Shown here: in pieces, positions 15,096 through 34,497 of the stretch
How the letters are laid out: each line of letters begins with the position of its first letter
Numbering within the stretch: the stretch's first letter is position 1
Source: Rhodanobacteraceae bacterium
GTDB taxonomy: Bacteria > Pseudomonadota > Gammaproteobacteria > Xanthomonadales > Rhodanobacteraceae
Assembly (NCBI GenBank): GCA_035534135.1
Contig: DATLSL010000037.1
Location: forward strand, 1 to 51,296
Direction of reading: 5' to 3'
Length of the DNA stretch: 51,296 bases
Made by a program: the position numbers and the translations under genes
Notes under the pieces: generated by a model
The model's input: only the letters and a program-made list of their open reading frames with translations
What the model was told of the DNA's origin: nothing
Databases searched by the model: none

Positions 15096-15171
15096 TGGTG
15101 GCCAGGGACGGAATCGAACCGCCGACACGGGGATTTTCAGTCCCCTGCTCTACCAACTGAGCTACCTGGCC
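15096..15171 (-). tRNA. tRNA-Phe (GAA)
   Basis: Reverse complement GGCCAGGTAGCTCAGTTGGTAGAGCAGGGGACTGAAAATCCCCGTGTCGGCGGTTCGATTCCGTCCCTGGCCACCA; 76 nt cloverleaf with encoded CCA. Confidence 0.98.
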
Positions 15172-20439: not shown

Positions 20440-20934
20440 ATGCGCAAGCTCGCCCTTTACGCCGCCGTTGCCCTCATTGGCGCGCTCTCGTTGAGCGCCT
20501 GTCAGAAGCAGGCCGGCCAGACCGCACCCCAGGCCCAGCAGGTCGCTCGGCCGACCAGCCCGACCGACACTGCCGGCTGGAAGGCCTATCTGGTGCAGGT
20601 GGTGACCAAGAACATGCAGGGCATGACGGCCAACCAGCCGTATATGTACTACGTGCCGGCCGGCACCGACGACGCCGACGCGCAGGCGCGCCAGCGCCAG
20701 CTCGACAACGTCAGCAGCACCGTCGCCCGCGGTGTGTTGCCGGGCAATCTGATGGCCTTCGGTGGCCCGGATTCCAGCCAGACCGCGCAGATGATCATCG
20801 CCGCGTTCAAGGACGCCCAGCCGGGATCGTTCAAGGGCGTGATCGTGCTGTTCGTGGGCGACAAGTCCGATGAGCAGGGCGTCGCGCAGGCCCTGCAGCC
20901 CAGCGCCGCCATCTTCCACTTCGTGCAGATGTGA
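20440..20934 (+). CDS. Hypothetical lipoprotein
   Basis: GAGG RBS; signal peptide with lipobox LSAC. Confidence 0.8.
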   Translation: MRKLALYAAVALIGALSLSACQKQAGQTAPQAQQVARPTSPTDTAGWKAYLVQVVTKNMQGMTANQPYMYYVPAGTDDADAQARQRQLDNVSSTVARGVLPGNLMAFGGPDSSQTAQMIIAAFKDAQPGSFKGVIVLFVGDKSDEQGVAQALQPSAAIFHFVQM

Positions 20935-21064
20935 TGGCTGTCGACGCGGGGGCTGACCTGGTCGCCGCGCACGCATGACGATGCGGCGGAACAGCAGTGA
21001 CCCGGCCGCTGCACGGCGGCGGACCCCGGCTTGCCATCACGCGTCGCTGCATGTACGTCGCGAT

Positions 21065-21115
21065 GGAGTGAGCGCATGGCGCTGAAGATCACCGACGTCT
21101 GCGTCAACTGCGACG
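21065..21115 (+). repeat. Direct repeat A copy 1 (RBS plus first 13 codons of the ferredoxin gene)
   Basis: GGAGTGAGCGCATGGCGCTGAAGATCACCGACGTCTGCGTCAACTGCGACG, identical to 21231-21281 (51 bp). Confidence 0.97.
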
Positions 21116-21237
21116 GCGAACCGGGATTTGCCGCGGGATGCGGTGAAGCGCATCCCGCGCCGGTGAGCGGCCAGCCATGGATGGCTGGACCGAGGGCGCA
21201 CCATGGATGGCTCTGTGCGCGTGTTGAATGGGAGTGA
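21076..21237 (+). CDS. Putative 53-aa leader ORF beginning with the ferredoxin N-terminus
   Basis: MALKITDVCVNCD + GEPGFAAGCGEAHPAPVSGQPWMAGPRAHHGWLCARVEWE*. It has the same RBS as the true gene, and its stop falls within the GGAGTGA RBS region of copy 2. Confidence 0.5.
   Translation: MALKITDVCVNCDGEPGFAAGCGEAHPAPVSGQPWMAGPRAHHGWLCARVEWE
21116..21230 (+). other. Structured element E1 between the duplicated gene starts
   Basis: Stem CGCGGGATGCG/CGCATCCCGCG with GTGAAG loop (21132-21159), flanking CCGG..CCGG, and two CCATGGATGG hairpins; same architecture as 21632-21738. Confidence 0.8.
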
Positions 21238-21281
21238 GCGCATGGCGCTGAAGATCACCGACGTCTGCGTCAACTGCGACG
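21231..21281 (+). repeat. Direct repeat A copy 2
   Basis: Identical to 21065-21115. Confidence 0.97.
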
Positions 21282-21505
21282 TCTGCGAGCCCGTCTGCCC
21301 CAATCAGGCGATCGCGCCCGGTCCCGACTACTACGAAATCAACCCGGCCCTGTGCACCGAGTGTGTAGGTCACCACGACCTGCCGCAGTGCGTCGAGGTC
21401 TGCCCGGTCGAATGCATCTTCGTCGATGACGCCCATGCCGAGTCGCGCGAGCAGCTCGAACTCAAGTACCGCGAGCTGATGCATGCCAGGGCAAGCGCCG
21501 CATGA
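21242..21505 (+). CDS. yfhL: YfhL-family 2[4Fe-4S] ferredoxin
   Basis: CVNCDVCEPVCPN and CTECVGHHDLPQCVEVCPVEC motifs. Confidence 0.93.
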   Translation: MALKITDVCVNCDVCEPVCPNQAIAPGPDYYEINPALCTECVGHHDLPQCVEVCPVECIFVDDAHAESREQLELKYRELMHARASAA

Positions 21506-21549
21506 GCCGACGCCTGTTCGTGTTTCGGCCGGGTGCCTTGTCGAGCCTG

Positions 21550-21631
21550 GTCACCGACGCCGCCATGATAGGGCGAAGAGGCAGACGATGAAGCTGTGGT
21601 CGATCCTGGGCAACTCGCAACGGCTGGATGG
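21550..21631 (+). repeat. Direct repeat B copy 1 (upstream region, RBS and first ~15 codons of the MBL hydrolase gene)
   Basis: 82 bp with 5 mismatches versus 21739-21820. Confidence 0.96.
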
Positions 21632-21635
21632 GTGA
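21588..21635 (+). CDS. Putative 15-aa leader peptide [15 protein letters not shown]
   Basis: Same amino acids as the hydrolase N-terminus; the stop TGA is supplied by the first bases of element E2. Confidence 0.5.
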   Translation: MKLWSILGNSQRLDG

Positions 21636-21738
21636 GCCGGGGTATTCGCGAGTGGCCGTGAAGGGCCACTCGCGCCGGCGAACGCCGGAGGCAGGAGCCG
21701 CAGGCGGGGTGACTTGGCGAGGCAGGAAGCCGAGCGTA
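21632..21738 (+). other. Structured element E2 between the duplicated gene starts
   Basis: Stem CGCGAGTGGCC/GGCCACTCGCG with GTGAAG loop (21647-21674), flanking CCGG..CCGG, hairpins GGC-AGGA-GCC and GGC-AGGAA-GCC. Confidence 0.8.
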
Positions 21739-21820
21739 GTCACCGACGCCGCCGAGATTGGGCGAAGAGGCAGACGATGAAGCTGTGGTCGATCCTGGGC
21801 AACTCGCAACGCCTCGATGG
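21739..21820 (+). repeat. Direct repeat B copy 2
   Basis: Matches 21550-21631 at offset 189. Confidence 0.96.
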
Positions 21821-22649
21821 CGGCGCCATGTTCGGCAACGCGCCCAGGGCGATGTGGTCGCAGTGGATCGCGCCGGATGCCGAGAATCGCATTCCGTTGG
21901 CCTGCCGCTGCCTGCTGGTGGACGACCTCGACGGCAAGACCGTGCTGTTCGAGACCGGCATCGGCGCGTTCTTCGAACCGAAGCTGCGTGAGCGCTACGG
22001 CGTGATCGAGGATCGTCACGTGCTGCTGGACAGCCTCGCGCAGGCCGGCTTCGCGCACGAGGACATCGACGCGGTGGTGCTCTCGCACCTGCACTTCGAC
22101 CATGCCGGAGGTCTGCTGGCGGCGTGGCGCGAGGGCCAGCCGGCGCAGCTGCTGTTTCCCAACGCGACCTATATCGTCGGTCGTGGCCACTGGCAGCGCG
22201 CACTGTCGCCGCATCCGCGCGATCGCGCCTCGTTCATTCCCGAGCTGCTGCCGCTGCTCGAAGCCAGCGCACGGCTGCAGCTGGTGGATGGCGAGTACGC
22301 GGCCGCACTGGGTCCGCGCGTGCGCTTTCACTATTCGGACGGGCATACGCCGGGGCTGATGTTGGCCGAGATCCAGCCCGTGCCCGGTGCCGGCGGTGGC
22401 GTGTTGTTCTGCGCCGACCTGATTCCCGGCCGCGCATGGGTGCATCTACCGATCACCATGGGCTACGACCGCTACCCGGAGCGCCTGATCGACGAGAAGC
22501 GCGACCTGCTCGATGCGGCACGCAAGCGCGGCGTGCGGCTGTTCTTCACTCACGATCACGAGATCGCTCTGGCCGACGTCGTGGTGGACGTGCGCGGGCG
22601 TTACGCCGCGGCGCAGGCGCAACCGCGGCTGGACGCACTGCCGTTATGA
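21777..22649 (+). CDS. MBL-fold metallo-hydrolase
   Basis: [26 protein letters not shown] and FTHD motifs. Confidence 0.93.
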
Positions 22650-31509: not shown

Positions 31510-34497
31510 TCAGCGCGCGCGCTCGACCCAGGCCAGCGCCCCAGTGGCCACCAGCGCGTCGATGTGGGCCGCGAGCACCGGCTGCAGCAGCTTCGCGTCG
31601 GCTGCAGGACCGGCGATCAGGCCGGCGCAACCATTGCGGCCGCTGCGCTTGACCCGGTACATGGCGATGTCGGCCAGCTCCAGCGCGCGCTCGAAATCCG
31701 CAGCGTCCGAGTCGCCCAGCAACGGGTACAGGGAATAGCCGATCGAACAGGTCAGACGGATCGCCTGATCGCCGGCCGCGAACATGTGCCCGCCGATGAT
31801 CTGGTGCAGCCGTTCGGCCACCTCGCAGGCCTGCACGTCATTGACTCCGCGCAGTAGCAGCAGAAACTCCTCGCCGCCCCAGCGCAGGGCCAGGTCGCCG
31901 GGGCGCTTGATGCGACCGAGCAGTTCGCCCAGTTCACTCAGCACCCGATCGCCGACGGCATGGCCGTGGCGGTCGTTGACTTCCTTGAAGTGATCGAGAT
32001 CGAGCAGCAACACAGCCACGCCGTCGGCGCCGCCGAGCAGGCTCGGCAGGCGCGTCAGCAGCTCGCGGCGATTACCCAGTCCGGTCAGGGCGTCGGTGGT
32101 GCTGTCGGCGCGCAGGGCCAGGTTGGTTTCACGCAGACGTTCGTTGGCGCGGCGCAGCTCCTCGGTACGCTCGGCGATCACCTGCTCCAGGCGCAGGCGG
32201 ATCGAGTGCTGCCGGCGCAGGCGCAGGCGCAGCAGCAGCCACAGTGCGATGGCCAGGATCACGGCGATCAGCGCGCGTACCGCGCCGCGCTCGTACCAGT
32301 GTGGCGTCACCGTCAGCGGCAGTGTGGTCAGTGGCCCCCAGGTACCGTCGCCGTAACGGGCCTGCACTTCGAAATCATAGTGGCCCGGTGGCAGGTGGGT
32401 GTAGTACGCCGCGCGGCGCGTGGTGACATCGCTCCAGGCGCTGTCATAGCCGTCCAGACGGTAGCGGAAGCTCAACCCGACGGGATCGCGCAGGTAGGGC
32501 ACGGTGTAGCGGATCGCGAGGTCGCGCTGGGTGTCGTCGAGCACGAAGGTGCCGTCGGGCAGGCTGTCCTTACCGCGGTGGACGATGGCGTCAATCAGCG
32601 GTGCCGTGACCGGCTGCGGTTTGCGGATCGCGGCGGTGTCCAGACGCACCGCGCCGGCGGTGGTCGGGTACCAGATCGAGGACCCGACCACCAGGCTGCG
32701 GCCGCCGCCAGCGCCGTTGCAGCAGCGCATGCTGTTGACGTCGAGACCCTCACTCTCTTCGCCGATCACGTGCAGGACGTTGAAGCGCACGTCGGCGGGA
32801 TCCACTCCTGCGGGCGGGAACTCGCTCAGCGGCAGCCGCCAGACGCCGTCGATGCTGGGCACATAGACCTGAGTGCCGATGACATCGAAGCCCCAGGCGT
32901 TGTTGCTGGGCAGGCCGTTGGCGACGGTGTAGTGCTGCAGCCGGCCGCCGCGCAGCAGGGCGAGGCCGGCGTCGGCGCTGGTGATCAGCCATTCGCCGCG
33001 GCGCAGCGGTTTGATCGCGGTGACGAAAGTGCCGCGCAGCGAGGCGCTCCACGACGGGCGCGACCAGTGGCCGTCCGCGAGTTCGAATACACCATTGCCG
33101 GTGCCGACCCACAGCCGGCCATCGGCCAGCGGCACGATCGCGCGGATGCTCGCGGCGGCGTTGCCCGGTGCCGCGCCGAACAGTTTCAGCGCGCCGTCGC
33201 GATAGCGATACAGGCCACCCTGGGTGCCGATCCAGTAGGTGCCGGTGGGCGCCTCGCGGATCACGTTGACCTGCCAGGCATCCAGTGGAGCCAGCGCCGG
33301 TGGCGTCGCGACCTTGCCCGCGGCATAGATCGCCACGCCGCCGCGGGTGCCGATCCACAGCCGCCCGGCCTGGTCATAAAAGAGCGTGTAGGCACTGGGG
33401 TTGGGCAGCGCGCTGGCCGGCACCAGGGTGGTCACGTTGGCGCCGTGCACGGTCAGCACGCCGGTGTCCGCGCCCAGCACGACCCGGCCGTCCGGTGCGC
33501 GCGCCAGCGCCCAAATCAGCGGAAAGCGGCCGTCGGCACGCCGGCCGAAGCGCTCCGCGGCGGTGTTGTCGATGCGGAACAGGCCATGCGTGCGGGTGCC
33601 CAGCCAGAAGTCGCCCTCGCGATCCTCGAAAAGACTGTCGATCCACGGCGGGCTGCCGAGCAGGCCGCTGCCGATGCGGTCGAGGCCGCCGTCCGGGCGC
33701 AGCCGGTACAGCGCCTGCAGGGTGCCGATCCAGAGGTTGCCGGCGCGATCGTCGGTCATTGTCTCGACCGCACTGGCATCGAGTTCGGGATCCAGTTCCG
33801 CAAGCTGCAGGCGGCCGTCCGCGATCTTGAACAGGCCGCGGGTGGTGCCGACCCAGAGACTGCCCTGATGCTCGGCCAGCGCAGTGACGCGGTTGCCTGC
33901 GGTGCCGGGCAGCGACGTGCATGTCACCGCGGCACCGCGCGCGCGACAGAGGCGATCCAGGCCACCGGCCCAGAAGCCGTTCGCGCGCGGCAGCAGGCTG
34001 AAGAACGGTCCGGTCAGGCCGGGCAAAGCACGAAAGCCGCGTGCGCCCCAGCTGCCGACGCCGGTCGCGGTCGCCAGCAGCGGACCGCCGTCGGTGCCGG
34101 TGCTGATGGCGTTGACCGAGGGGCCGCCCAGCGCGAGCAGGTGGCCGTCGTGCTCGCGCACCAGCCCGGTGACGGTACCGAACCAGACGTCGCCGTCTGG
34201 CGCGCCCCACGCCGCCTGCGCCATCGAGATGTCGCGGCCGTCGCTCATCTGCAGCAACGTCGTCATGCGCTCGCCGTCGAAGCGAGCGACGCCGCTTTGC
34301 GTGCCGATCCAGAGAAAGCCGGCGCGATCCTGGGTCAGGCTGATCACGCTGATCTGCGGCAACCCGCGCTGCATGCCCCAGGCGTTGATCTGGTAGTCGC
34401 CGAACGGTGTGGCCGGATCGAGCGCATGCGCGCGGCTGGCGCCGAGCGCCAGCGCGAGCAGGCTCATCAACATCAGACCTCGCCGTTGCATCGCCAC
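31510..34497 (-). CDS. Membrane diguanylate cyclase with periplasmic two-component-regulator beta-propeller and Y_Y_Y domains
   Basis: Signal peptide, repeated D..G.LWIGT blades, FRYRLDGYD..YTHLPPGHY.FEV, TM, then DALTGLGNRR, DLDHFKEVND, RWGGEEF. Confidence 0.93.
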   Translation of the reverse strand: MAMQRRGLMLMSLLALALGASRAHALDPATPFGDYQINAWGMQRGLPQISVISLTQDRAGFLWIGTQSGVARFDGERMTTLLQMSDGRDISMAQAAWGAPDGDVWFGTVTGLVREHDGHLLALGGPSVNAISTGTDGGPLLATATGVGSWGARGFRALPGLTGPFFSLLPRANGFWAGGLDRLCRARGAAVTCTSLPGTAGNRVTALAEHQGSLWVGTTRGLFKIADGRLQLAELDPELDASAVETMTDDRAGNLWIGTLQALYRLRPDGGLDRIGSGLLGSPPWIDSLFEDREGDFWLGTRTHGLFRIDNTAAERFGRRADGRFPLIWALARAPDGRVVLGADTGVLTVHGANVTTLVPASALPNPSAYTLFYDQAGRLWIGTRGGVAIYAAGKVATPPALAPLDAWQVNVIREAPTGTYWIGTQGGLYRYRDGALKLFGAAPGNAAASIRAIVPLADGRLWVGTGNGVFELADGHWSRPSWSASLRGTFVTAIKPLRRGEWLITSADAGLALLRGGRLQHYTVANGLPSNNAWGFDVIGTQVYVPSIDGVWRLPLSEFPPAGVDPADVRFNVLHVIGEESEGLDVNSMRCCNGAGGGRSLVVGSSIWYPTTAGAVRLDTAAIRKPQPVTAPLIDAIVHRGKDSLPDGTFVLDDTQRDLAIRYTVPYLRDPVGLSFRYRLDGYDSAWSDVTTRRAAYYTHLPPGHYDFEVQARYGDGTWGPLTTLPLTVTPHWYERGAVRALIAVILAIALWLLLRLRLRRQHSIRLRLEQVIAERTEELRRANERLRETNLALRADSTTDALTGLGNRRELLTRLPSLLGGADGVAVLLLDLDHFKEVNDRHGHAVGDRVLSELGELLGRIKRPGDLALRWGGEEFLLLLRGVNDVQACEVAERLHQIIGGHMFAAGDQAIRLTCSIGYSLYPLLGDSDAADFERALELADIAMYRVKRSGRNGCAGLIAGPAADAKLLQPVLAAHIDALVATGALAWVERAR

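Follow-up and report, generated by a model that had tools for sequence, protein, structure and literature searches.

Two neighboring genes in a Rhodanobacteraceae genome, encoding a ferredoxin and an MBL-fold hydrolase, each begin twice: a second copy of the gene start lies upstream of the intact gene, and an insert of about 110 nt separates the two. This locus raises the questions of whether the repeats are real, what the insert is, and how an insert of this kind can come to be followed by a whole gene.

The repeated gene starts and their alleles

The window, i.e., the whole stretch of 51,296 nucleotides that was analyzed, is contig C37 of a source assembly (genome label G000) of 1.84 Mb that has 69% GC, is 75% complete and comprises 184 contigs. 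As claimed in the preliminary description, which was made from the letters alone, the ferredoxin start carries a perfect 51-bp repeat (21065-21115 and 21231-21281) around a 115-nt insert, E1, and the hydrolase start an 82-bp repeat (21550-21631 and 21739-21820) with 5 mismatches (21565, 21566, 21570, 21623, and 21626) around a 107-nt insert, E2. Two of these mismatches are coding, and both are synonymous. The features of the stretch, all on the + strand, are as follows.

21065..21115, +, ferredoxin start copy 1, with SD GGAG, ATG at 21076, and 13 codons
21116..21230, +, element E1, with 5' GYGAR after G, hairpin 1 at ~21132-21159, and a second YGARCG motif
GGA at 21179 and 21205, +, 3' part of E1, with GGA-loop hairpins and then a short tail
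21076..21237, +, upstream ORF of 53 codons, made up of copy 1 and E1
21231..21281, +, ferredoxin start copy 2, belonging to the intact gene
21242..21505, +, intact YfhL-family di-4Fe-4S ferredoxin gene (NF033683, 120.7 bits, cut-off 86)
21502..21505, +, ATGA overlap at the ferredoxin stop, an abandoned hydrolase start
~21527..21557, +, decayed 3' half of an older element copy of the E2 subtype (by-eye comparison with the copy at the mnmG site)
21550..21631, +, copy 1 of the element end, tail, and hydrolase start
21588-21635, +, upstream ORF of 15 codons, its stop a TGA within the first bases of E2
21632..21745, +, element E2, of the second subtype, with GTGAG after GG and hairpin 1 at 21647-21674
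GGA at 21694 and 21725, +, GGA-loop hairpins of E2, the last stem extending into the repeat
21739..21820, +, copy 2 of the element end, tail, and hydrolase start
21777..22649, +, intact MBL-fold hydrolase gene (best match YtnP-like lactonase, below the curated cut-off)

Copy 1 of the ferredoxin start adjoins native upstream DNA as in the empty alleles described below. The stop of the 53-codon ORF falls within copy 2, 4 nt ahead of the true ferredoxin ATG, so placed that translational coupling to ferredoxin is possible. Two details of the preliminary description require revision. The motif GGYGAR(CCGG), taken there for the end of the duplicated segment, is the element's own 5' end, and the repeat ends at an overlapping G or GG; and the repeats are indeed gene-specific except for the 82-bp repeat, whose first bases are the 3' end of the element. 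An Rfam scan of the window at gathering threshold returns two tRNAs and no other family, and no sigma-70-like promoter or terminator was found in 20900-21850. RNA run X20 covers 21383-21550 only, with E1 and E2 outside, and is uninformative on the elements. Elsewhere in the window, positions 33069-34337 contain several imperfect 37-52-nt repeats resembling a beta-propeller coding repeat.

Exact 20-mer repeats spaced 90-450 bp apart number 24 in the genome and 0 in each of 5 triplet shuffles. The junctions of E1 recur in the independent assemblies G008 and G013, and those of E2 in G005, G013, and G011. Read support, on which the original proposal had been made to depend, comes from DNA runs X1, X2, and X5 (three studies), the contigs of which carry E1 with both flanks, as do those of X1 and X5 for E2; no listed piece covers the whole stretch, and one of the three runs may be the window's source. 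Although fragmentation of the source assembly into 184 contigs and the frequent position of arrays at contig ends or beside N gaps might point to an assembly artifact, such an origin of the duplications is dismissed with near certainty because identical junctions recur in other assemblies and in contigs of DNA runs, the copies differ by substitutions, and the same layout is found in the single-contig genomes G152, G064, and G090.

Empty sites, which the preliminary description had proposed to seek in relatives, were found as clean single-copy alleles of both genes. Among 30 ferredoxin loci E1 and its repeat are present in G000, G008, and G013 only, and these carriers are interleaved with non-carriers on a tree of ferredoxin and its upstream gene; G005, G009, and G011 have one clean start and no E1. 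At the hydrolase a unit occupies the same GG in G000, G005, G013, G011, G006, and G007, in tandem in G013, G006, and G007, and E2-type units stand at this GG in two separate clades. A remnant only is present in G008 and G009. The site is empty in G003, G004, G010, G014, and G015, where the hydrolase start overlaps the ferredoxin stop, and in the element-free relatives G010, G014, and G015 the ATGA at the ferredoxin stop is the hydrolase start. It follows from this comparison that the start at 21502 has been abandoned, that an older element has decayed at ~21527-21557, and that E2 with its repeat represents a later round. Copy 1 is absent from the hydrolase locus in G008 and G009 and is decayed at ferredoxin in G013 and at purA in G014; since genomes exist in which it has decayed and others that have lost it, the start in use is that of copy 2. 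Sister species lack the element, or carry it degraded, at the same genes. At another locus of the window, the tRNA-Phe gene at 15099-15171 (- strand), the site is empty here, and G011 (L129) has an element at the D-loop GG of this tRNA together with a 5' repeat.

A family of elements with a fixed 5' junction

The shared design noticed for the two inserts is borne out, E1 and E2 being members of one ~110-nt family that comprises two subtypes. On the + strand the fold of each insert (z -2.3 for the 115-nt and -5.8 for the 107-nt insert) is a long hairpin with two GGA-loop hairpins after it, and the anatomy of the family is a fixed 5' end, a covarying hairpin 1, and two GGA-loop hairpins. Hairpin 1 has two-sided changes at all 10 pairs and 98% of cells paired, values that clearly exceed those of shuffled and slid controls, in an alignment (A3) that was fitted to the model and for a palindrome, a kind of sequence that can self-correct without selection. 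A basal helix pairs the 5' GGYG with CGCC, and since one of its pairs is C-G in 78 cases and U-G in 21, the + strand is favored as the folded strand. At least one unpaired GGA is present in 182 of 190 copies and two in 122 of 190; the loops vary around NNGGAN, with ATGGAT the commonest.

A covariance model (R1), as the preliminary description had recommended, was built from 14 copies of this genome. It recovers 18 copies in the genome at E<=0.001, 14 of them the training sequences, and gives at least 219 matches in at least 20 of 41 relatives (89 candidates scored per genome) and matches in at least 10 of 150 further genomes of the class (24 candidates scored each); since limited numbers of candidates were scored, the counts in relatives and class are lower bounds. 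One narrow pattern in GTDB yields 89 loci, including Luteimonas, Pseudoxanthomonas, Stenotrophomonas, Dokdonella, Mizugakiibacter, Solimonas, and Nevskia, although some six of them (L147, L149, L174, L184, L195, and L209), kept in the count of 94 below, look like chance or degenerate matches. IMG/VR gave no match to one pattern, plasmids none to E2, and phages none to E1.

Direct repeats anchored at the element's first base, the layout predicted for further copies, are found in 71 of the 131 hits with the 5' motif (of 153 distinct hits, tandem-internal and redundant rows counted) in the relative loci examined, which are part of the 150 matches listed, and in 40 of 94 GTDB matches as against 7 of 455 flank swaps. 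An unbiased scan of the genome for direct repeats returns 18 pairs, 7 of which enclose an element together with a gene start (that of ferredoxin, hydrolase, argC, purA, mnmG, a hydroxyacid-dehydrogenase-like gene, and a CAT-anticodon tRNA); one further pair (C34) brackets a divergent copy antisense to the 3' end of a gene. Among other copies of this genome, some terminate genes, some lie within GGGAC(T/C)C heptamer arrays, and some are embedded as the core of longer repeats arranged back-to-back. Target genes named by NCBIfam are ubiG, trmB, mnmG, purA, pgk, argC, rpe, pduO, pdhB, and hisF, the names pgk and pdhB being below cut-off and from partial queries. From their translations, others are presumably accB, murG, guaA, xth, aroC, ubiH, mtnC, sdaA, pstB, thiS, nuoK, rplO, ivd, ftsQ, kdpA, and hrpA.

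The 5' end of the element is the same base across the two subtypes, many genes, and many families, and the 3' ends vary. It is joined directly after G or GG: 35 of 36 target sites have G at -1 and 34 of 36 have G at -2, and there is no consensus 3' of the junction; for the GTDB loci, the pattern searched for itself included the GG ahead of copy 1, which bears on these counts. Junction microhomology is 1-6 nt. Insertion is not specific to positions just after start codons, as had been proposed, but extends to the 5' and 3' ends of tRNA genes, to protein-gene 3' ends in both orientations, to in-frame positions inside genes, and to short repeat arrays. Many repeat-less copies at 3' ends supply the stop, either by GGGTGA (Gly-stop) or within the first codons (frames read by eye). 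Of the 26 tRNA rows, 8 have the site at the D-loop GG, 7 have an antisense element that lies 15-16 nt from the CCA end, and 6 have the site at nt 68-70 of the CAT tRNA.

Several individual loci illustrate these positions. In L143, L146, and L222 and in L154, L177, and L197 the whole element lies in frame, adds ~40 residues, and is retained in several species; we take these genes to be kdpA and hrpA. In L225 the element is antisense within 5S-rRNA-like sequence, presumably 5S rRNA, with the rRNA part repeated. L002, L003, and L006 (G000 C172, C62, and C125) are copies within GGGAC(T/C)C heptamer arrays, a type of array that can adjoin four-helix-bundle genes. A seven-unit tandem array of element and tRNA 5' part precedes an intact CAT tRNA in L293 (G064:C1:1015893-1016872), and G064 is a single-contig genome with no RVT_1 match.

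The element is non-autonomous, repeated, and structured, it leaves the gene intact, and it is present or absent at orthologous sites, in agreement with what the preliminary description put forward. The absence of terminal inverted repeats is likewise confirmed, no arms being found at the ends of E1 or E2. Its flanking repeats of ~15 to 95 bp, not short and fixed, together with this absence, set it apart from a MITE of the DDE kind. In the complete genome G152, each of the five loci L316, L320, L322, L323, and L324 holds an inverted pair of elements, tail-to-tail, between palindromic repeats of the ACAGGATT type, a MITE-like composite.

Relation to TwoAYGGAY and other known repeats

E1 aligns with the TwoAYGGAY RNA motif (Rfam RF01731; Weinberg 2010, PMC2864571) over model positions 49-108 with 20.1 bits and E=3.9, short of the gathering cut-off of 43 bits, and no RF01731 match at E<=1 was obtained in 40 further loci. 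The preliminary statement that the family is unrecognized thus holds in that it lies below the Rfam cut-off and fails in that it is related to TwoAYGGAY and its extended form. Two consecutive GGA-loop hairpins are common to both, and E1 contains ATGGAT twice. The basal stem of TwoAYGGAY encloses both of these hairpins; in the consensus obtained here, in which the GGA hairpins are poorly aligned across subtypes, a basal helix encloses hairpin 1. The element differs in having an extra hairpin bracketed by two GYGAR motifs, in forming a short stand-alone core, and in inserting after GG inside genes with the gene end repeated.

Extended TwoAYGGAY of Pseudomonadota is described as having 5' GMTBT repeats and back-to-back doublets, and a mobile-element-like spread is suspected by the same authors, who leave the question unresolved (Li et al., 10.64898/2026.09.22.753630). 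The long forms L009 (C62:16400-17329) and L014 (C116:12800-13800), in which the same core lies back-to-back with GCTCT, GATCT, or GCTTT upstream, fit that description; GMTBT-type repeats and doublets are absent at E1 and E2. Longer repeats arranged in the manner of extended TwoAYGGAY RNA, a form that is also characterized by a 3' pseudoknot, thus have the element as their core. The terms 'duplicat', 'target site', and 'Xanthomonad' do not occur in the main text of Li et al. (10.64898/2026.09.22.753630), and the literature searched, with most subscription journals and the TwoAYGGAY supplements outside it, contained no description of insertion that repeats a gene end.

The TLRs of E. coli, including RrA, RrB, and RrF, are non-coding units beside tRNA and rRNA genes, 1-5 per locus, that carry an 18-19-bp copy of the gene's mature 3' end, and the RrB repeat binds CsrA via GGA motifs (PMC8144298). 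A copy of the tRNA mature 3' end is present in 8 of the 26 tRNA rows (antisense type), and not at E1 or E2. TLRs have been described only downstream of stable-RNA genes, whereas the element also rebuilds 5' ends and protein-gene starts and shares one fold. Repeats of the REP/REPIN type with RAYT are non-autonomous and hairpin-forming and occur in tandem arrays and inverted doublets (PMC3337134), properties shared by the element, which is tail-to-tail in G152. REP/REPINs are extragenic, however, whereas the junctions of most repeat-bearing copies of the element lie inside genes and long gene-end repeats accompany them. Integrative elements restore a tRNA or gene end from attP and so leave the layout of gene fragment, insert, and restored gene. 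The element has this layout, and D-loop and T-arm sites of tRNAs recur; it differs in being ~110 nt, in encoding no integrase, and in that the restored piece is different for every target gene. In the way it works the element resembles TLRs and attP-restoring islands, a likeness that need not mean membership in either. Two other resemblances were rejected: an sX4 match at L301 is explained by the tRNA-Ser part, and a likeness to group II intron domain V, HDV ribozymes, and MOB-P nic sites was dropped because loop variants lack those motifs. The element is real and widespread, and is a new variant of a known, unexplained kind of RNA repeat.

Origin of the flanking repeat and mode of spread

The flanking repeats are long and variable, as stated in the preliminary description. 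In 16 of 26 tRNA rows the two copies are mostly identical within the tRNA and lose their similarity exactly at its mature end, past which it is at background level (at most 8 of the next 15 nt match). Of the other rows 9 of 26 are tandem or remnant types and 1 is intermediate. Among 58 coding copy pairs 22 are identical, and the others differ by 81 synonymous and 28 non-synonymous codon differences, where the synonymous share expected is 28.5% for random change and ~44% if copy 1 decayed and copy 2 changed silently; the size of this excess is uncertain because the pairs, which are related and not independent, had been selected for a peptide pattern in copy 2 and for at least 55% identity. The antisense C34 pair also differs synonymously. 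In hisF of G006, copy 1 matches the empty allele of G010 and copy 2 the empty allele of G009. A plain, one-off target-site duplication is rejected because of the stops at tRNA ends, the synonymous differences, and the two natural hisF alleles. Gene flow among lineages is, on its own, also able to produce the synonymous excess and the abrupt repeat ends.

Different units of element and tail are stacked at one junction (purA in G000, L203), and several protein-gene repeats begin at or near ATG. At hisA-hisF (L253 and L110, G006 and G005) the hisA end, copy 1, and element are near-identical in two distant species, which therefore indicates recent horizontal transfer of the locus. As a general rule, gene-specific cassettes moving between families can be set aside, the nearest element being at the same gene in 11 of 42 comparisons across groups. 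The pgk sites of different families carry unlike elements, which points to insertion having recurred at one GG or to elements having been replaced. A proposed AT enrichment of copy 2 that would free the start also failed (37 vs 28, p=0.32; GC3 0.82 vs 0.83), and folding gave no consistent gain in start accessibility.

With great confidence we regard the family as a non-autonomous mobile element with a fixed GG-joined end. The best explanation of the whole, to which an even chance is assigned, is a protein-free ~110-nt element with a GG-joined 5' end that spreads by way of a single-stranded, probably RNA-derived copy made by an enzyme provided in trans. At the target GG, the 3' end of a DNA strand would pair with the complement of the element's 5' end, and the other side would be resolved at a gene start, a mature tRNA end, or short homology, giving a unit of element, tail, and gene end. 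Only events leaving a whole gene would survive, hence the repeated starts, the stop-giving 3' ends, the antisense 3' ends with repeat, and the in-frame inserts. Ordinary recombination between repeats and between lineages would then expand, delete, and re-introduce the unit, and by this gene flow copy 1 could keep the look of a recently working allele. Where transcribed, the GGA loops would bind CsrA.

That RNA serves as the template falls a little short of an even chance. The + strand wobble, the CsrA-type loops, and repeats ending at mature tRNA ends would favor it modestly; against it, RVT_1 (PF00078) has no match in G000 (75% complete) or in the carriers G064, G126, and G055 (99-100% complete), and repeats start at ATG, which is not an mRNA end. 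RVT_1 is present in only 13 of 41 relatives, and a reverse transcriptase outside this family, or since lost, is possible. As in the preliminary description, no cognate enzyme was found, here among Y1 transposase, RVT_1, PF05635, PF13366, and GIY-YIG, with IS91, IS110, and tyrosine recombinases outside the search, and the co-distributed RT or HUH/RAYT gene anticipated there did not emerge, no enzyme family tested tracking the element. The four-helix-bundle family PF05635 is present in 2 of 5 distant carriers, as is PF13366, and PF05635 was not found in G000. GIY-YIG is present in 5 of 5 distant carriers, both in UvrC-sized and in short stand-alone frames. In G000 a short GIY-YIG frame lies beside a tandem repeat array (C67:381-930), with similar short frames in G013, G152, and G064, loci that we take to resemble Ssn nuclease loci.

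A broader form of the RNA-templated reading, possible but doubtful at present, is that class-wide SINE-like bacterial RNAs retrotranspose without a linked enzyme and write a CsrA-binding module together with a fresh gene end into essential genes, which stay intact. Copying would be primed at, or jump to, tRNA ends and mRNA start regions, and would be completed when the 5' end of the element pairs with a GG of that gene.

It is rather unlikely that no dedicated enzyme is involved, such that the hairpins promote template switching and slippage during host replication, the 5' junction is set by GG microhomology, and recombination together with gene flow accounts for everything else. In its favor are the frequent tandem arrays of element parts, some of which lack gene starts, the 1-6 nt junction microhomology, the mosaic hisF alleles, and the lack of a tested enzyme family that tracks the element. 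A 5' end that is fixed across subtypes, genes, and families while 3' ends vary is explained less well, however; new sites on different contigs require long-range copying, and a neutral insert would be expected to disappear by deletion between its direct repeats, yet distant families have the same sites occupied.

Movement of a single-stranded DNA element by an HUH enzyme (RAYT, IS200/IS605 TnpA, or an IS91-like one-ended enzyme) that recognizes hairpin 1 and cuts after GG is also unlikely. A hairpin close to the fixed end, the absence of terminal inverted repeats, and the combination of an exact end with a variable one suit HUH chemistry. That IS200/IS605 insertion produces no duplication counts against it. 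Y1 matches occur in 27 of 41 relatives and in 5 of 5 distant carriers; they are, however, also common in genomes without the element, no element lies within ~1.4 kb of the Y1 gene in any of 20 loci fetched (of 64 listed), and G000, G005, G008, and G034, which are incomplete genomes with 18-31 element copies, have no Y1 match. REP arrays do adjoin extended TwoAYGGAY copies in SBW25 (10.64898/2026.09.22.753630).

A domesticated regulatory leader, kept for CsrA/Rsm control or as a CsrA sponge with mobility secondary, is improbable as the main explanation. CsrA binding has been proposed for TwoAYGGAY (PMC4333381), a csrA gene is present in the genome, the GGA loops come in pairs and could be CsrA sites, the second loop of E1 lies 26 nt from the SD GGA, and E1 differs between G000 and G008 at 2 of 115 nt despite a strongly diverged upstream spacer. 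Copies that are antisense, behind 3' ends, in frame in proteins, or at tRNAs fit such a role poorly, as do the sister species with no element or a degraded one at the same genes. Finally, removal of element and copy 2 as an intron, or their skipping by the ribosome, with copy 1 as the working start, would agree with the synonymous excess and with both copies ending at the same codon position, but is most improbable given the loss or decay of copy 1 at hydrolase (G008, G009), ferredoxin (G013), and purA (G014), the mid-gene inserts L143 and L154 that read through in frame (by eye), and the synonymous differences of the antisense C34 pair.

TwoAYGGAY has been an orphan motif since 2010, and its mobility has so far only been suspected in print; the present element, with its precisely placed junctions, its occupied and empty alleles, and its simple target rule of a fixed 5' end after GG and a restored gene end, opens the mode of spread to direct testing. 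The SINE-like reading, if true, would explain the copy-number variation of TwoAYGGAY and possibly the E. coli tRNA-linked repeats of 1978. The element rewrites the translation starts of housekeeping genes (purA, pgk, mnmG, ubiG, argC, and hisF) and the ends of tRNA genes, it can supply stop codons and in-frame protein insertions, and it could bring genes under control by CsrA. Safe insertion into essential genes would gain a new route in an insert able to regenerate the end of any gene.
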